DNA from: Candidatus Thorarchaeota archaeon
GTDB taxonomy: Archaea > Asgardarchaeota > Thorarchaeia > Thorarchaeales > Thorarchaeaceae
Assembly (NCBI GenBank): GCA_003345555.1
Contig: PRDJ01000041.1
Coordinates: 66,038 to 98,037, forward strand
DNA length: 32,000 nt
Reading direction: 5' to 3'
The position numbers and the translations under genes were made by a program. A model generated the notes under the pieces. The model searched no databases, had not been told where the DNA came from, and saw nothing but the letters and a program-made list of their open reading frames with translations. Each line of letters begins with the position of its first letter. The first letter of the stretch is position 1. Positions 14,768 through 24,614 of the stretch are shown piece by piece.

Positions 14768-14968
14768 TAACCTACGGGCGCGCGACACCGTTTTCCACTA
14801 ACCATACTTTCGACCATCTCTCCCAGATTCGCGAGTACAAAAGAACAGACACGCTGTGACAGAAATGCCCTAGCAAGGGTCTGCCGCTCGACTCCCATCA
14901 GCGTGTGGCAGGTACCGTAAGCCTTACTTGTCGTTAGGCATGCGTTGCGCTGGTCGAGGCTCGAGCAG

Positions 14969-16948
14969 ATGGCAGGTTTCAAGCTGGTTGCCCCGTTCAA
15001 ACTCACAGGAGATCAGCCCGACGCGGTGCAGAAGCTCGTGGAGGGCCTGAACAGTGGGCTTCAGCAACAAACTCTGCTCGGAGTCACTGGATCCGGTAAG
15101 ACCTTCGTGATGGCCAATGTCATAGCTCACTACCAGAAGCCGACCATCGTCATCTCTCACAACAAGATACTTGCGGCACAGCTCGCCGCTGAGTATCGAC
15201 AGTTCTTCCCCGAGGATGCGGTGGAATACTTCGTCTCATACTATGACTATTACCAGCCAGAGGCATATGTCCCGACTAAGGACATGTACATTGAGAAGGA
15301 GACAGACATCAACGAAGAAATCGAGAAGCTTCGTAATTCCACGACTCGTTCTCTCAAGACCCGCAATGATGTTGTAGTCGTAGCTTCTGTGTCCTGTATC
15401 TACAACCTCGGCGACCCTAGGGAGTATGATGAGCTAGCTCTGACGCTAGAGGTGGGTCAGGAGATCGAGAGGCGTACGCTGCTCGAGAAACTGATATCGA
15501 TGCAATACGAGCGCAACGATATGGAACTCAAGGCGGGCATCTTCCGCGTTCGCGGCGATGTAATTGATATTCATCCCGGTTACGAGTCAGAGACAGTAAG
15601 GCTCCAACTCGATGGCGACAGAATAGACCGAATCTCTATAGTTGACTCTCTGACATCCCATCGGATATTCGAGGAGCGTGGCATAGATATCTGGCCTGCG
15701 AAGCATCACGTTGCACGCCATGAGAAGACCTTGGCCGCCCTCGACTCGATTAAGGCAGAGATGGAGCAACGCGTTGAGTGGTTCAAGAAGCAGGGGAAGG
15801 TTGTCGAGGCAGACCGCCTCCGCCGAAGGACACTCTATGACATCGAGATGCTCCGACAGACCGGGTCTTGCGAAGGTGTTGAGAACTACTCCCGACACAT
15901 AGATGCCAGAAAGCAGGGTGAAAAGCCCTACTGTCTCCTCGATTACTTCCCAGAGGACTTCCTGATGATCATCGATGAAAGCCATATGACCATTCCGCAA
16001 CTTGAGGGGATGTATCACGGTGACATATCGCGTAAGCAGAGCCTTGTCGACTATGGTTTTCGGCTACCCTCTGCGTTTGACAATCGTCCATTGAAGTTCG
16101 ACGAGTTCAAGGGTTACATGAAACACGTAATCTGCACGAGCGCAACACCGGGACCATACGAAAGAAAGTCAAGCAATCAGATTGTCGAACTGCTCCTGAG
16201 ACCGACTGGTCTCATTGATCCGGAGATAACAGTAAAGCCCGTTGAGAATCAGGTCGACGATTTGTTGGCTGAGATAGGGAAAACAACGGCGAGACATGAG
16301 AGAGTGCTAGTGACAACGCTCACGAAGAAGACCGCGGAGATGCTTTCTGAGTATCTTGTGGAATCAGGCGTCAAGGCTAGGTACCTCCACTCTGACATTA
16401 AGACAGTCGAGCGCATAGAAATCATCCGTGACTTGCGTCTCGGCAGGTTCGACGTGCTCGTGGGCATCAACCTGCTAAGGGAAGGACTCGACCTCCCAGA
16501 AGTCTCTCTTGTGGCCATTCTTGATGCCGACAAGGAGGGTTTTCTGAGAAGTGAGTGGGCACTCATCCAGACAATGGGGCGTGCTGCAAGGAATGTCAAT
16601 GGCCGGGTCATACTCTACGGGGATCACATCTCGGCTGCCATGCAAGCCGCCATAAACGAGACCAACCGACGCAGGGAGTACCAGCTGCGATACAACGAGC
16701 AACACGGTATCACGCCCAAGACCATAGTGAAATCAGTATACGATATTGCCGAGCGCATCCCATCGAAGAAGAAACCCGAGCAGGCGAAGATAGCTGACTT
16801 CGATTTCGTGGATATTGAAAGCATCACAGAGTTGATTGTCAATCTTGAGGAAGATATGAAGGAAGCAGCAAGGAACCTTGAGTTTGAACGAGCGGCGGAA
16901 CTGCGAGACCAGATTCGTGAACTGCAGTCGAAGATTGAAGGGCGGTAG
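14969..16948 (+). CDS. uvrB: Excinuclease ABC subunit B
   Basis: [27 protein letters not shown] beta-hairpin, [29 protein letters not shown], and a C-terminal UVR domain. ATG 14969 is preferred over track start 14945. Confidence 0.98.
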
Positions 16949-16951
16949 TGT

Positions 16952-19876
16952 ATGGCATCAAGTTCTAAGTCTCGTGCGAAGAGCGTGCGGCTGGATACGG
17001 AAGGTCCACAGGACATCGTTATCCGTGGAGCCGCAGAACACAACCTCAAGCACATCGACCTGCAGATACCTCGCAACAAGCTTACTGTTGTTACAGGAGT
17101 CTCCGGCTCGGGCAAGTCGAGTTTAGTATTCGATACCATATTCGCAGAAGGACAGCGCCGTTTCGTGGAGTCGCTTTCGCCCTATGCTCGACAGTTCCTT
17201 GGCATGCTTGAGAAGCCCAAGGTGGACTACATGTCAGGGCTGTCTCCTTCAATCTCAATCGACCAGAAGAGTGCTGGTCACAATCCTAGGAGCACAGTCG
17301 GCACTATCACTGAGATCTACGATTTCTTGAGGCTCCTGTTTGCCCGTGTTGGAGTGCCCCATTGCCCAAAGTGTGGCAAGAAGATTGAACCCCAGACTGC
17401 GCAGCAGATTGTCGACAGGGTTCTTGCTCTTGGAGAGGGGACAAGCATCGCCATCATGGCACCAATCGTCCGAGAAAGAAAAGGAGAATACAGGAAGGAG
17501 TTCCGTGACCTACTTGAGAAGGGGTTCGTCAGAGTACGTGTTGACGGAGAACTGAAAGACATCGAAGAGGGCACGTCGCTAGACCGATACTACAAGCACA
17601 CAATTGAGGTTGTAATAGACCGCCTCAAGGTATCTGATTCCCAGAGAGCAAGAATATCGGAAGCGGTAGAAACCGCCCTCACGATGGCTGATAGAGTGGT
17701 GACGATTGCTGCAGACTCAGGCGACCTCACACTTTCGGAGAAGTTTGCATGTGTAGATTGCGGCATCAGCCTTCCCGAAATGGAACCACGCCTATTCTCA
17801 TGGAACACTCCACACGGGGCGTGTCCAACCTGCACCGGGCTCGGGGTCATCAGAGAGATAGACACAAAGCTTGTAGTGTCAGATGATTCGCTCTCAATCT
17901 CTCAAGGAGCAATCGCACCCTACAATTGGATGTCTAAGTCTACAACGATCAAGGCGGTTGCCAATAGGTATGGATTCTCCATGGACACTCCCTGGAGAGA
18001 TCTAACTCCAGATCAGAAGGACAAGATACTCTGGGGAACAGGTGACGAAGAAATCAAGATTGACTGGCACTGGGGAGACGATCCCGCGAAAACCCAGTGG
18101 GAAGGGACAACGGTCGCTCCATTTCGCGGCGTGATTGCTCAAATGGAACGGAACTACAAGTCAACCAAGTCAAACTACATCCGCGAGTGGCTTGAGCATT
18201 TCATGGTAGACCATGAGTGCTCGGTATGCAAGGGCTTGCGGCTTCGACCCGAGTCGACTGCCGTGAAGTTCAGAGATCTCTCGATAACCGATGTGAACAG
18301 TATGTCCATCAAGGACCTATCCGAGTTCTTCCAATCCGTGGTCCTGTCGCCGCGAGAAGAACCAATTGCCCATCCAATCATCAAGGAGATAATGGGAAGG
18401 TTGGGTTTCTTGATGGAGGTCGGCCTCGACTACCTGACACTCGATCGGTCTGCACCGTCACTCGCCGGAGGAGAAGCACAAAGAATCCGACTAGCGAGCC
18501 AGATTGGCTCCAATCTTGTGGGAGTGACCTACGTATGTGACGAGCCTTCTATTGGGCTTCATCAACGTGATAACCTCAGGCTTCTGCGCTCATTGAAGAG
18601 CCTACGAGACATAGGAAACACAGTGGTTGTAGTCGAGCATGATGAGTCCACTATGAGAGCCGCTGACTACCTTGTTGACCTCGGACCCGGGGCCGGCGAT
18701 GAAGGCGGTCGAGTTGTTGTTGCGGGAAAGGTCGATGATGTGCTTGCATCGAAGAAATCGTTAACCGCCAAATATCTTCGAGGCGATGAGAAGATACCAG
18801 TGCCTGCTGTTCGAAGACAACCGAACGGCAGATTCATTGAGATAAAGGGTGCCCGGCATCACAACCTCAAGTCCATAGACGTTAAGATTCCTCTCGGACT
18901 CTTCGTTTGTGTCACGGGCGTATCGGGCAGTGGAAAGTCGAGCCTGATAGACGAGACGCTTCAGAGAGAGCTAGCAAGGAGGTTCTACAATGCTACAGCC
19001 ACACCCGGTGAGTGCGATGCCATTATTGGTGCTGAACAACTCGACAAGGTCATTATCATTGATCAGAGCCCGATTGGTCGCACACCAAGATCTAACCCCG
19101 CGACCTACGTAAGCCTGTTCTCGGACATTCGAGACCTCTTCTCAGGCTTGCCCGAGGCGAAGATCAGAGGTTACAAACCGGGTAGGTTCAGCTTCAATGT
19201 GAAAGGCGGGCGGTGCGAAAAGTGCAGGGGTGCAGGTGTTGAAGTCATAGAGATGCAGTTCCTCCCACCTGTTGAGGTCACCTGCGCTGAATGCAAGGGG
19301 CGACGATACAACAGAGAGACACTTCAGGTCCGCTACAAGGGCAAGAACATAGCCGACGTCCTTGCAATGAGAACAGACGAAGCACTTGACTTCTTCGCAG
19401 ACTTACCATCAATTCATCGCAAGCTGAAGACACTCTACGAGGTGGGCATGGGCTATGTTCAACTGGGCCAGCCCGCGACGACACTGAGTGGCGGAGAGGC
19501 ACAAAGAATCAAACTAAGCAAGTTCCTTTCGCGGCCCGCCACCGGTCAGACTCTGCTCCTCCTCGACGAACCGACGACCGGGCTCCATTTTGCAGACATC
19601 AAGAAGCTGCTTGAGGTTCTTCATAGGCTTGTGGACTTGGGCAATACAGTGCTCGTTGTGGAGCATCAGCTCGATGTTGTGAAGACCGCGGACTGGGTGA
19701 TTGATTTGGGCCCTGAGGGCGGCGACGAGGGCGGCTACCTCATCGCAGAAGGTACTCCAGAGCAAGTGGCTGAACGCGAGAACTCATACACTGGGAAGTA
19801 CCTCAGAGGGGTGCTTCACGAGGCGAGACCAGAAGCTGCAGTCCAAAGAAGCGGCACGAGGAGGAAGAAGCCATGA
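16952..19876 (+). CDS. uvrA: Excinuclease ABC subunit A, copy 1 (full length)
   Basis: Two Walker A motifs (GVSGSGKSS twice), signatures LAGGEAQR and [16 protein letters not shown] and DEPTTGLH, three zinc modules, UvrB-binding domain and insertion domain. Confidence 0.98.
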   Translation: MASSSKSRAKSVRLDTEGPQDIVIRGAAEHNLKHIDLQIPRNKLTVVTGVSGSGKSSLVFDTIFAEGQRRFVESLSPYARQFLGMLEKPKVDYMSGLSPSISIDQKSAGHNPRSTVGTITEIYDFLRLLFARVGVPHCPKCGKKIEPQTAQQIVDRVLALGEGTSIAIMAPIVRERKGEYRKEFRDLLEKGFVRVRVDGELKDIEEGTSLDRYYKHTIEVVIDRLKVSDSQRARISEAVETALTMADRVVTIAADSGDLTLSEKFACVDCGISLPEMEPRLFSWNTPHGACPTCTGLGVIREIDTKLVVSDDSLSISQGAIAPYNWMSKSTTIKAVANRYGFSMDTPWRDLTPDQKDKILWGTGDEEIKIDWHWGDDPAKTQWEGTTVAPFRGVIAQMERNYKSTKSNYIREWLEHFMVDHECSVCKGLRLRPESTAVKFRDLSITDVNSMSIKDLSEFFQSVVLSPREEPIAHPIIKEIMGRLGFLMEVGLDYLTLDRSAPSLAGGEAQRIRLASQIGSNLVGVTYVCDEPSIGLHQRDNLRLLRSLKSLRDIGNTVVVVEHDESTMRAADYLVDLGPGAGDEGGRVVVAGKVDDVLASKKSLTAKYLRGDEKIPVPAVRRQPNGRFIEIKGARHHNLKSIDVKIPLGLFVCVTGVSGSGKSSLIDETLQRELARRFYNATATPGECDAIIGAEQLDKVIIIDQSPIGRTPRSNPATYVSLFSDIRDLFSGLPEAKIRGYKPGRFSFNVKGGRCEKCRGAGVEVIEMQFLPPVEVTCAECKGRRYNRETLQVRYKGKNIADVLAMRTDEALDFFADLPSIHRKLKTLYEVGMGYVQLGQPATTLSGGEAQRIKLSKFLSRPATGQTLLLLDEPTTGLHFADIKKLLEVLHRLVDLGNTVLVVEHQLDVVKTADWVIDLGPEGGDEGGYLIAEGTPEQVAERENSYTGKYLRGVLHEARPEAAVQRSGTRRKKP

Positions 19877-22752
19877 CGGGCTACATCAAGGTCCGAGGCG
19901 CCTCTGAGCACAACCTGAAGGGTATCGACGTCGACATCCCGAGAGACAGGCTCGTTGTCGTCACGGGACCCTCAGGTTCGGGGAAATCCAGTCTTGTCTT
20001 TGATACCATCTTTGCCGAAGGTCAGAGGAGATATGTTGAATCACTCTCATCATATGCCAGGAGGTTTCTGGGTCGACTCGATAAGCCGAGAGTTGAGTCA
20101 ATCACAGGCTTGCCACCCGCAATCTCAATTGAGCAGAAAGGGGGAACCAAGAACCCCAGAAGCACGGTTGGAACCAGTACCGAGATTCACGACTATCTAC
20201 GACTTCTGTTTGCCAACATAGGCATCCCGCACTGCCTCAAGTGTGGTGCCGCTATGGAACAACTCACTGCGGATTCGGCTGCAACACTTCTGCTTCAGGA
20301 GAATGGTGGCAAGAGAATCGTGGTTCTCGCCCCGGTCGCGAGAGAAGAGCCAGGAAAACTAGAGGATACGCTCCAGCATCTGACCGAGAACGGTTTCACG
20401 CGAGTCAGGGTCGACGGGGAGATTCGAGAACTTGAAGGACTAGAACTGGACGGCCGCAAGAAGCACAATGTGGACGTAGTCGTTGATAGAGTCGAGCTGG
20501 GCGAGAAGAGCAGAGAAAGACTGGTCGGTTCCATTGAGACTGCTCTAGAGTCAGGGCAGGGTTCGGCAGTCATAGCTCGGGAAGGGGAGCAGGATATAGT
20601 ATTCGCAGAGAAACTCATGTGCCCACACTGCGGTATTCAATACGAAAAGCTCGAACCCAAGGCTTTCTCGTACAACACTCCTGCTGGCGCATGTCCGGCC
20701 TGCAACGGTCTCGGTGCCACAATCAGCATCGATCCGGAGAAGATTGTTCCAAATAAGATACTCAGTCTAACAGATGGTGCCCTGAAGCCATGGGCCGGGT
20801 CTCAACAGTCATGGCCGTATCGCTTGCTTGAAGCTCTATCTGCAGAAGCGAACTTCTCCCTTGACACGCTGTGGAGCAAGCTTCCAGAGTCCGTTCACGA
20901 CCTCATAATGTGGGGTCGTCCGCCACTCAGAGTGAAGTTCTCCTATCAGCAGATTGACTACAAGGGACGACTTCAAACAGTAAACGTGACCCGCACTTGG
21001 GAGGGCATGGTACCTAGATTTGAGAGGCACCTTCGCGGAAGACTATCCGAAGAGACCAAAGAGAAGATCATCAGTCTATACTCAAGCAGGAAGGTCTGTG
21101 CAGCATGTGGTGGCAAGAAACTTCGACCGGAAAGTCTCGCAGTGACAGTTGCAGGAAAGACAATCGACAGCGTAACCTCAATGACAATCGAAGATGCTCT
21201 CGACTTCTTCAAGAATATCGAACTGACAGAGCGGGAGCACAAGATTGCTGGACTCATCCTGAAAGAGATCGTGTCCCGTTTATCATTCATAGTATCAGTC
21301 GGACTTGACTATCTCAACCTTGACCGTCCATCGATGACACTCTCGGGCGGAGAATCACAGAGAATCCGTTTGGCGACTCAGATTGGGTCTGCGTTGACGG
21401 GAGTACTCTACTGCTTGGATGAGCCCTCGGTCGGTCTGCACCCTCGCGATATTTCACGGCTGCTTGTCACTCTGATTCGACTGAGGAGCCTTGGCAACAC
21501 GGTTGTAGTAATCGAACACGACCGTGACACAATCAATGCGGCAGACTACGTTGTGGACTTGGGTCCGGGAGCCGGCGTCCACGGAGGAAAGCTAGTCGCA
21601 TGCGGCACTCCTGAAGAAGTGCTCTCGAGTCCGAAATCACTCACTGCCCTCTATCTCGCAGGCAAGAAGCAGATACCAGTGCCCAAGACGAGAAGGGCGG
21701 GTAGCGGAAAGTCAGTAGTCGTAAGGGGAGCCCGTCAGAACAACCTGAGAAACATAGACGTTGCATTTCCACTTGGGAGATTCATCTGTGTCACGGGAGT
21801 CTCTGGCAGTGGTAAGAGTACGCTCGTCCACGAGACACTATACAAAGCCTTGGCCCAAGTCATGGGTTCCTCCACGGAGACACCTGGTGACCATGACGGG
21901 ATTGACGGAGCCGAGAACATTGACCGTCTAATACTGGTGGACCAGTCTCCCATTGGACGAACTCCTCGGTCAAACCCTGCAACCTACACAAAGGTCTTCG
22001 ATGAGATTCGCAAGCTCTTTGCACTGACTCCCGAGGCAAAGGCGAGAGGCTACACGGCAGGCAGGTTCAGCTTCAACACGAGAGCCGGCAGATGTGAGAA
22101 GTGCCAAGGCAGTGGGCTTCTTCGAGTCGAGATGCACTTCATGACCGATGTCTACATCACCTGCGACGTGTGCAACGGTAATCGCTTTGACAGAGAGACA
22201 CTCGAGGTGAAATACAAAGGCAGGAACATAACTGAGGTTCTCAGGATGAATATCGAGGAGGCACTGGGATTCTTCCAAGACATTCCGCAGGTGGCCGACA
22301 GGCTGCAGACACTCGCTGATGTTGGTCTTGGATACGTCGAACTCGGCCAGCCCGCGACCACGCTCAGCGGAGGCGAGGCACAAAGGGTTAAGCTTGCAGC
22401 AGAACTCTCGCGCAGAAACACAGGGTCTACCCTATACATACTTGACGAGCCTACAACCGGCCTCTCAGCATCAGACGTGGATGTGCTCCTCAAGGTCTTG
22501 AATCGGCTTGTCGACTCTGGCAACACTGTCATCGTCATCGAGCACAACCAAGAAGTCATAAAGACTGCAGACTGGGTGATTGATTTGGGTCCCGAAGGTG
22601 GGGTCAAGGGTGGTACCTTGGTTGCCGCAGGAACGCCAGAAGAGGTCTCATCAGTACCCGAGTCTTTCACTGGGCAGCATCTCAAAAGCGCTCTTTCAGG
22701 TCCCAAAGTGCGTCACAGTGTAGTTACCACACTGCCGCCTCCAAAGACCTGA
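19873..22752 (+). CDS. uvrA: Excinuclease ABC subunit A, copy 2 (full length, diverged paralogue)
   Basis: GPSGSGKSS and [17 protein letters not shown] and [16 protein letters not shown] and DEPTTGLS, all three zinc modules, both inserted domains. Overlaps copy 1 by ATGA. Confidence 0.97.
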
Positions 22753-22802
22753 TTTATCACTGACTGCATCGCAATATCAGCTGACGAACGGAGATTCTCG
22801 AT

Positions 22803-24614
22803 GTGTCCGATCTTGCCAAACTGGTTGGTGACCTTCCTGAGCTTCCAGGGGTGTACCTCTGGAAGGATGAAGCAGGCAAGATCATTTACATTGGAAAAGC
22901 CAAGTCACTTCGGAAACGTGTTAGCTCATATCTCAGCAGAAAGGAATTGGACTCAAAGACTGAAGATCTCATGAACCATGCCCGTGACCTTGAGACGATA
23001 GTGACTAACAACGAGCTTGAGGCTGTGATACTCGAGTCAACACTCATCAAGCAACATATGCCAAAATACAACATCGCACTGAAGGACGATCGAAGGCATG
23101 CTTGGATACGTGTTGACCTCAACAAGGAGTATCCAGTGTTTGAGGTGACTCGCGATGTCGCAAAGGACGGGGCCAACTACTACGGGCCCTATGGAAGCAC
23201 AAGGCGGCTCGACAGATTCCTAGATTCAGCTCGTAAGTTCATTCCTATTGCTATGTGCAAGAGCCCAGAAGCTGTCAAGAGGGAGTGCACAGATTACTAC
23301 CTTGGTAGATGTGCGGGACCTTGCAAAGAGCATGTCCCAAGAGAAGAATACAGATCCATGGTCGAACAGATGCGTCTGTACCTTGAGGGAAAGGAAGCCC
23401 AGCTGACTCAAGCAGTCAAGAAGGAGATGGACAAAGCTGCTAACAACCTCGAGTTCGAGAGAGCTGCCAGACTCAGAGATCGGCTCAAGGACATAGAGAT
23501 AGTCATGAGGAAACAGAAAGTCTTCGACGTCGCCGAAATTGACAAAGACGTTCTTGGAATATCCAGAACCGAACAGGCTGCTCTCGTTGAGATGCTCATC
23601 ATTAGGACGGGAAGGCTTGTTGGCACAGACCATTTCTATTTCGAACTGAGCATGGATACGACGGATTCGGAAGTCCTCTCTTCATTTGTAAAGCAGTTCT
23701 ACTTCAAACTCCCTCAGGTCCCTGATGAGATACTCGTGCCGGTCGAAATACCTGAAATGGAACAGCTTGGCGATTGGCTTAGTCAAAACAGGGCCGTGCC
23801 CATTAAGCTGTATCTGCCCGCTGAGGGTAAAGCGAACGAACTCGTCAAGATGGCAAACGCAAACGCCACGAGAAGCCTACGGAGGATACTCGTTCTTGGA
23901 GACCGGGACGAAGACATTGTTGACGAGGGCGTCAAACAGCTCAAGGAAGCTCTGGGACTCACTCGCGCGCCGTTCCACATAGAAGGCTTCGACATTGCTA
24001 ACATTCAGGGAACCGACCCGACCGGTTCATGTGTGGTCTTCGTCAACGGTCAAGCCGCAAATAGCAGCTACCGGATGTTCAGGGTACGCGTGAAAGAGAC
24101 CCCCGATGATTATGCCATGATGTCAGAAGTGGTGCTGAGAAGGTATAGAGGCGTCCTTGAAGAGGGCGGTGTCATCCCTGATTTGATAATGGTCGACGGA
24201 GGAAAGGGCCAGCTAAGTGCGGCGCTCAAGGCTCTTGATCAGCTCGGACTCGAATACCTCCCAGTTGCGGCTCTTGCAAAGAAAGAGGAGATCATCTATA
24301 CTCAAGACAACATGGACGGAATTGCTCTCCCGCCTGAGTCGCAAGGCCTGCGATTGATTGAAAGTATACGAGACGAGGCACACCGATTTGCGCAACGATA
24401 CCATCACATCCTGAGAGAGAAGAGATTCACGGGTTCGATACTGGAGGAGGCGCCGGGGATTGGACCGAAGAGGAGAGCCGCCTTGCTCAATGCATTCGGC
24501 AGCTACGAAAAGGTCAGGTCAGCGAGTGTAGAGGAACTGGCGAAAGTTGAGGGGATGTCGCAAAAGACCGCAGAAGCACTCAAGGAGTGGCTTGACAAGG
24601 ACGAAATTGCCTAG
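22803..24614 (+). CDS. uvrC: Excinuclease ABC subunit C
   Basis: GIY-YIG domain (PGVYLW...IYIGKAKSLRKRV), four-Cys region, UVR domain, RNase H-like domain (FDIAN, PDDY, VDGGKGQL, RDEAHRFA) and C-terminal HhH2 (PGIGPKR). Confidence 0.98.
   Translation: MSDLAKLVGDLPELPGVYLWKDEAGKIIYIGKAKSLRKRVSSYLSRKELDSKTEDLMNHARDLETIVTNNELEAVILESTLIKQHMPKYNIALKDDRRHAWIRVDLNKEYPVFEVTRDVAKDGANYYGPYGSTRRLDRFLDSARKFIPIAMCKSPEAVKRECTDYYLGRCAGPCKEHVPREEYRSMVEQMRLYLEGKEAQLTQAVKKEMDKAANNLEFERAARLRDRLKDIEIVMRKQKVFDVAEIDKDVLGISRTEQAALVEMLIIRTGRLVGTDHFYFELSMDTTDSEVLSSFVKQFYFKLPQVPDEILVPVEIPEMEQLGDWLSQNRAVPIKLYLPAEGKANELVKMANANATRSLRRILVLGDRDEDIVDEGVKQLKEALGLTRAPFHIEGFDIANIQGTDPTGSCVVFVNGQAANSSYRMFRVRVKETPDDYAMMSEVVLRRYRGVLEEGGVIPDLIMVDGGKGQLSAALKALDQLGLEYLPVAALAKKEEIIYTQDNMDGIALPPESQGLRLIESIRDEAHRFAQRYHHILREKRFTGSILEEAPGIGPKRRAALLNAFGSYEKVRSASVEELAKVEGMSQKTAEALKEWLDKDEIA

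Follow-up and report, generated by a model that had tools for sequence, protein, structure and literature searches.

Closest Described Systems

UvrA is best described as a class I homodimer, with solved structures from G. stearothermophilus (2R6F), T. maritima (3PIH) and M. tuberculosis (3ZQJ) and that of Ct-UvrA (9GXK). A proximal ATP site is built from ATP-binding domain I together with signature II and a distal site from ATP-binding domain II together with signature I, both within one chain (PMC12796330; PMC6486640). Here we analysed two adjacent class I UvrA genes, uvrA1 and uvrA2 (products A1 and A2), in a stretch of 32,000 nucleotides, called the window, from a Candidatus Thorarchaeota archaeon of the Asgard group (assembly GCA_003345555.1, contig PRDJ01000041.1, positions 66,038 to 98,037 of the forward strand). 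A preliminary description of this DNA had proposed that unusual ATPase motifs weaken the distal site in A1 and the proximal site in A2, as a division of labour like that of heterodimeric ATP-binding cassette (ABC) ATPases with degenerate sites. We arrived at another reading, to which we give a probability of about two in three: the unusual residues would be mild substitutions fixed in this lineage, all four ATP sites of the pair are likely competent with at most some kinetic tuning, and no degenerate-site division of labour would exist.

The two genes are the second and third of four co-directional open reading frames (ORFs), uvrB-uvrA1-uvrA2-uvrC, at 14945-24614 (+):

16952..19876, + strand: uvrA1, class I UvrA, 974 amino acids; UvrA profile NF001503, 1422.2 bits, profile positions 4-942 of 943
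19873..22752, + strand: uvrA2, class I UvrA, 959 amino acids; NF001503, 1372.3 bits, profile positions 5-941 of 943

Both proteins matched the profile over its full length and above its cut-off of 1147 bits, and they scored 1350.3 (A1) and 1309.9 bits (A2) on TIGR00630, for which the cut-off is 729.8 bits. The UvrB-binding domain, the insertion domain and three Cys4 zinc modules were found in both; every CxxC pair was present and the conserved Cys columns were kept at 100%. A Walker A Lys, a Walker B Asp-Glu, an H-loop His and a signature were found in each half of each protein. With 52% identity between them, A1 and A2 are anciently diverged, full-length class I UvrA paralogues in one operon.

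Compared with the canonical homodimer, A1 and A2 have the same length and domain order, the three zinc modules, the UvrB-binding and insertion domains, two intramolecular composite sites and all catalytic residues, and they scored about 1040-1140 bits against the solved UvrA chains. They differ in being encoded by two overlapping paralogous genes instead of one. A1 further differs in its LAGGE signature, and A2 in a GPS Walker A, in D-loop II, where Ser replaces His, and in the divergence of its insertion and UvrB-binding domains. Fused double UvrAs of class I (about 1800-1950 amino acids, NCBIfam PRK00635-type, many clusters at 50% identity) likewise contain two distinct class I units. Their N units group with A1, GPS is frequent in their second unit, and LAGGE and a non-His D-loop II are sporadic; they form one polypeptide, whereas A1 and A2 come from two coupled genes. 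Class II UvrA paralogues, such as D. radiodurans UvrA2 (2VF7) and Ecm16 (7SH1), also represent a second UvrA-family gene beside a repair UvrA. However, they have no UvrB-binding domain and about 810-840 amino acids, while A2 is full length and lies inside the uvr operon.

Heterodimeric ABC ATPases in which one site is degenerate (TM287/288, TAP1/TAP2, CFTR-type) build each composite site from two different chains or halves; in the degenerate site the Walker B Glu, the H-loop His or both are missing, and the signature is strongly changed. They resemble the A1-A2 pair in having paralogous modules with asymmetric changes that include the signature and D-loop regions. In contrast, the sites of A1 and A2 are intramolecular and keep both the Walker B Glu and the H-loop His. 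Because UvrA sites are formed within one chain, changes in two chains cannot add up to a single degenerate site in the way seen in TAP1/2. The analogy of A1 and A2 to heterodimeric ABC transporters is therefore loose.

Variant Residues and the State of the Four ATP Sites

All ATPase motifs of A1 and A2 are canonical except at three residues, A505 of A1 and P33 and S865 of A2:

18461..18484, + strand: A1 signature I, LAGGEAQR; A505 is GCC at 18464-18466, within SLAGGEAQR
19966..19989, + strand: A2 Walker A-I, GPSGSGKS; P33 at 19969-19971, followed by K38
22444..22476, + strand: A2 Walker B-II with D-loop, DEPTTGLS; S865 is TCA at 22465-22467

Checks of codons and motifs agreed with the earlier observations that A1 has LAGGE with its other motifs canonical, and that A2 has canonical signatures together with GLS in the D-loop and GPSGSGKS in Walker A-I. 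A505 occupies the usual place of the distal-site signature Ser, and S865 stands where reference UvrAs have His. In the solved UvrAs of T. maritima, G. stearothermophilus and M. tuberculosis, both signatures are LSGGE and both D-loops are GLH, so that the residues of A1 and A2 depart from the bacterial norm. By our own reading of the register, the GLH His would correspond to the Asp that other ABC ATPases have in their D-loop (DEPxxxL-D); literature searches gave nothing relevant on what the D-loop His does in UvrA. As a Walker A of the standard ABC kind, GPSGSGKS represents no defect.

The rest of the catalytic apparatus was complete. None of the four sites of A1 and A2, and none of the orthologues examined, lacked Walker B DE or H-loop EH. 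Walker A GxSGSGKS occurs twice in each protein, and three of the four signatures are LSGGE. The Arg five residues before signature I, which stacks on adenine at the distal site, was kept in A1 (LDRSAPSLAGGE) and A2, and so was the Gln five residues before signature II at the proximal site; the two residues have been tied to tight distal and weak proximal binding, respectively (PMC6486640). Because A1 and A2 keep every catalytic and nucleotide-contacting residue, their four sites most likely bind and hydrolyse ATP.

The proximal and distal sites had been defined correctly in the preliminary description, in agreement with PMC12796330 and PMC6486640, and the signature Ser is indeed called catalytic in the literature, where the signature-I Ser (S490 in Ct-UvrA) is named as the serine with the catalytic role at the distal site (PMC12796330). 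As each site lies within one chain, A505 and S865 affect different sites in different protomers. The substitutions of the two partners do not converge on one composite site, and neither the Walker B Glu nor the H-loop His has been lost. D-loop II in cis belongs to ATP-binding domain II, that is, to the distal site. The D-loop of ABC transporters extends to the opposite site, and an assignment of S865 to the proximal site would follow solely by analogy with them.

Conservation among Orthologues and Order of the Changes

The three residues were followed in 21 A1 orthologues from genomes of the same family and in 102 clusters of A2 orthologues (90% clustering; 65-100% identical to the query). Signature I of A1 was [S/T]LAGGE in 19 of 21 and LSGGE in the other two (G013 and G012), and D-loop II was GLH in every one. 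Walker A-I of A2 was GPSGSGKS in 102/102 clusters, both signatures of A2 were LSGGE, and its D-loop II was GLS in 100, GLA in two and GLH in none. The expected conservation among orthologues was thus strict in A2 and held for most of A1, the two LSGGE sequences excepted. Because the pattern recurs in orthologues, it is neither a one-off nor a sequencing error.

A genome of the sister family (G025) gives the order of events. Its A1 has LSGGE, and its A2 has GVS in Walker A-I but GLSMSD in D-loop II. Since GLS is already there while LSGGE and GVS remain, the D-loop change is the oldest, and LAGGE and GPS came later and separately. The three substitutions arose in steps, not together.

The Same Variants in UvrAs without a Partner

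We surveyed 49 Asgard UvrAs from 21 other families, comprising the best UvrA of 40 further genomes and nine sequences from a first survey:

D-loop II GLH: 34/49
D-loop II GLS or GLA: 15/49, in 8 families
Signature I LSGGE: 17/49
Signature I LS[V/A]GE: 27/49
Signature I LAGGE: 5/49

LAGGE was found in three families (f3, f12 and f31). Within another family, f9, 20 newly fetched UvrAs had His (15), Ser (4) or Ala (1) in D-loop II, and the UvrA of G032 gave one further Ser; close relatives there switch among the three residues (L146-L165, L144). As a side observation, all 21 f9 UvrAs share a signature I of the form LSVGE[A/S]ER and a Walker A-II that reads GVSGAGKTS, and the f9 protein is often the sole class I copy of its genome.

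Six genomes with GLS or GLA had one UvrA match at E <= 1e-150 (G032, 99% complete; G240, G198, G194, G114 and G159). One match together with LAGGE was found in G026 and G037 (genomes of 1.4 Mb, in a single contig and in 6 contigs) and in G329. The caution that LAGGE may occur in ordinary UvrAs was thus borne out by the sole UvrAs of these three genomes and also by a Coatesbacteria protein described below. In five genomes with at least two matches, the extra copies were all unlinked to the variant UvrA and were class II proteins of about 830 amino acids, double class II proteins of about 1640 amino acids, or class I proteins on another contig. Since the extra copies are class II in G160, G251 and G399, each of these genomes has one class I UvrA, and it bears GLS or GLA. 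The variant UvrA of G032 lies between ORFs of 672 and 620 amino acids, an arrangement that by its ORF sizes resembles uvrB-uvrA-uvrC.

Two other explanations of the GLS sequences were rejected. They are not A2 orthologues that have lost A1, as the GLS Asgard UvrAs form a separate clade with bacterial single-copy UvrAs. Nor does GLS mark hidden tandem pairs in the five genomes checked, where the second matches were unlinked class I or class II copies.

In the bacterial set, signature I was LSGGE in 76 of 77 and D-loop II was GLH in 77 of 77, counts from a mostly Bacteroidales, redundant set that came from a scan of genome contigs with A2 and do not give a balanced pan-bacterial frequency. The lone exception was a Coatesbacteria UvrA with LAGGE. 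An unfused UvrA of 980 amino acids (P0137) carries GLS. GPS in Walker A-I occurred in none of the unpaired full-length UvrAs outside the A2 clade, in the Asgard and bacterial sets.

A sole class I UvrA has to operate each of the four ATP sites of its homodimer with whatever variants it has. LAGGE and GL[S/A] are not specific to the paired state, and both lie at positions where Asgard UvrAs vary freely. The weakened-sites proposal was to fall if its substitutions were common in single-copy UvrAs, and within the Asgard archaea this is so, LAGGE and GLS/GLA being found in sole class I copies. Three residues that are invariant in reference bacterial UvrAs, the Ser and Gly of signature I and the His of D-loop II, are replaceable in sole, presumably functional class I UvrAs. 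This points to a wider looseness of signature I and D-loop II in the UvrAs of Asgard archaea, sole copies included, that had not been remarked before.

Asymmetry between the Domains of A1 and A2

The conservation of each domain was scored over the columns in which unpaired UvrAs show at least 80% conservation:

ATP-I: A1 0.87, A2 0.85
ATP-II: A1 0.90, A2 0.90
Sig-I: A1 0.85, A2 0.91
Sig-II: A1 0.91, A2 0.94
Insertion domain: A1 0.83, A2 0.48
UvrB-binding domain: A1 0.87, A2 0.77

The ATPase cores of A1 and A2 are about equally conserved. Considering these equal core scores and the differences in the insertion and UvrB-binding domains, the clear asymmetry lies in the accessory domains and not in the ATPase cores. 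The strongest A1/A2 asymmetry measured falls in one region:

20260-21060: diverged region of A2, residues about 130-396

At the residue level, the UvrB-binding domain of A2 is without the Lys of the APxVRxRKG segment, which A1 keeps. The conserved C-terminal R-R-Y..T.S...R positions of the insertion domain are lost or variable in A2 and kept in A1.

Gene Coupling, Phylogeny, and Fused Relatives

The two genes share four nucleotides:

19873..19876, + strand: ATGA overlap of the uvrA1 stop and the uvrA2 start, 4 nucleotides

The distance from the A1 stop to the A2 Walker A was 89 nucleotides in 17 of 20 pairs and 92 in two; the odd one was an assembly with an in-frame TGA in A1. At the equivalent position of A2 there was an ATG or GTG start. 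Among genomes of the same family that are reasonably complete, nearly all had the tandem pair, and so did the one sister-family genome. A genome of the same genus (G003; L135, C4:343600-350000) has an in-frame TGA in A1 and an A2 frame that ends early, at 815 amino acids; pseudogenisation of the operon or a fault in the assembly could explain this.

In a tree of 68 units (FastTree, LG+gamma, with SH, Shimodaira-Hasegawa, support), whose deep nodes may be subject to long-branch effects, A1 and A2 were each monophyletic (SH 1.0) and were not sisters. A1 clustered with the N halves of fused double UvrAs, Asgard ones included (SH 0.97). A2 fell in a clade that also held the C halves of Asgard fused proteins (SH 0.96) and did not join the main bacterial C-unit clade.

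Fused double UvrAs score twice in a search of the representative library with A2, which returned almost only such proteins; 134 of the best 150 representative clusters (P0005-P0154) had at least 1500 amino acids. We analysed 49 fused proteins with two full class I units, split at the third Walker A. GPS in Walker A-I was found in 39% of C units (19/49) and 16% of N units (8/49), as against 0 of the unpaired UvrAs. LAGGE occurred in three N and two C units and a non-His D-loop II in three N and four C units, so that both LAGGE and GLS are low-frequency recurrent variants in fused units. Variants at the third position of signature I were commoner in C units (11/49).

One fused relative deserves separate mention. 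In a genome of family f5 (G028; L137, C24:96513-102194), a single protein of 1917 amino acids contains two full class I units. Its N half has GLA at both D-loops, and its C half has LSNGE, ISGGESER, DEPSQGLH and a DH H-loop, so that its motifs are far more degenerate than those of the thorarchaeal A1 and A2. P0011 (1916 amino acids) is of the same type.

A1 and A2 are thus encoded by co-inherited, probably translationally coupled genes with fused homologues. The gene overlap and the fused homologues favour a physical A1-A2 partnership, without proving it. Literature searches on tandem or heterodimeric UvrA found nothing relevant.

Alternative Explanations

How, then, should the variant residues be read? 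Based on the complete catalytic apparatus and the sole class I UvrAs with the same variants, we hypothesized that A505, P33 and S865 are mild changes. In such a machine the Ser-to-Ala change in signature I may slow hydrolysis at the distal site of A1, the His-to-Ser change in D-loop II of A2 may alter the coupling between sites, and A1 and A2 would probably form a heterodimer whose real asymmetry lies in the insertion and UvrB-binding domains of A2. Several observations weigh against this. The Ser/Ala of the A2 D-loop and GPS are fixed in 102/102 clusters and the A1 His is invariant, which could reflect selection for asymmetry, not inertia. A505 may indeed slow the distal site of A1, S490 of Ct-UvrA being named the catalytic serine (PMC12796330). 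The enrichment of GPS in the second units of fused proteins hints at a link to partnering, and the single-copy status of the variant UvrAs is based on metagenome-assembled genomes (MAGs) and hidden Markov model searches of assemblies. The original proposal, with a weak distal site in A1 and a weak proximal site in A2 as complementary slow and fast sites, draws on part of the same evidence: the substitutions are specific to each paralogue and conserved, the distal site is where the signature-I Ser acts (PMC12796330), and GPS is enriched in the second units. It also draws on the gene overlap and the fusions, which favour a heterodimer, and on the fact that the D-loop of an ABC transporter reaches the opposite site. 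Nevertheless, we consider this proposal quite improbable. Sole class I UvrAs carry the same variants, no site has lost its Walker B Glu or H-loop His, and the ATPase cores are equally conserved. Moreover, the changes took place at different times, LAGGE reverted twice, GPS is a canonical Walker A, and the sites are intramolecular, so that the changes fall in separate protomers and D-loop II is distal in cis. The preliminary description was therefore sound as to the residues, which are real, paralogue-specific and conserved, and as to the site definitions, while the complementary weakening of the sites was for the most part not borne out. As read from the sequences, the flagged motif variants are by themselves no evidence for ATP-site specialisation.

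The nature of the pair is a related question. A1 and A2 might be unpaired, working as separate homodimers with differing lesion or partner preference like class I and class II paralogues, and the motif differences would then be incidental lineage markers. They are only 52% identical and not sister clades, the insertion domain of A2, which discriminates damage, is diverged and variable, and paralogues with separate roles are common here, given an extra unlinked class I UvrA in some thorarchaeal genomes and a double class II protein of 1619 amino acids in this one. Against this, the invariant 4-nucleotide overlap within the uvrBC operon suggests coupled, equimolar synthesis, the halves of fused homologues group with A1 and near A2, and A2 retains its UvrB-binding domain and three zinc modules; we regard separate homodimers as unlikely. 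At the other extreme, A1-A2 might be an obligate heterodimeric damage sensor in which A2 is a regulatory, one-sided partner, marked by its D-loop Ser/Ala, GPS and relaxed insertion and UvrB surfaces, with four kinetically distinct ATP sites and UvrB perhaps loaded mainly via A1. This seems to us rather improbable. If it were true, the pair would be a naturally asymmetric version of the UvrA machine, which to our knowledge has so far been studied only as a symmetric homodimer. The symmetry of the homodimer makes the four ATP sites of UvrA difficult to dissect, and a natural heterodimer with distinguishable protomers would let each site be mutated singly. Short of that, the tandem pair is a reasonable heterodimer candidate, by virtue of gene coupling, fusions and accessory-domain divergence and not of the motif variants.

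Operon Context and Other UvrA-Family Genes

The pair is flanked by the other two genes of the operon:

14945..16948, + strand: uvrB, ORF of 667 amino acids; NCBIfam UvrB NF003673, 1010 bits against a cut-off of 743
22803..24614, + strand: uvrC, 603 amino acids; TIGR00194, 528 bits against a cut-off of 285

All four operon proteins exceed curated NCBIfam cut-offs. The true start of uvrB may be the ATG at 14969. The uvrB-uvrC context would be consistent with a role of A1 and A2 in UvrB loading and UvrC incision.

The source MAG has 2.28 Mb and is 93% complete, and the window lies on its contig C41. Another contig (C17, 17908-22704, - strand) carries an ORF of 1619 amino acids with two class II-like units, each below the class I cut-off. 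Similar double class II ORFs of about 1640 amino acids were found in other thorarchaeal genomes and in those of family f18. Some genomes of the same family contain a third, unlinked full-length class I UvrA (L142, G008:C5:71951-74713; L143, G017:C50:3334-6096), which has LSAGE in signature I and DEP[ST]VGLHMED in D-loop II and groups with the C halves of fused Asgard UvrAs.

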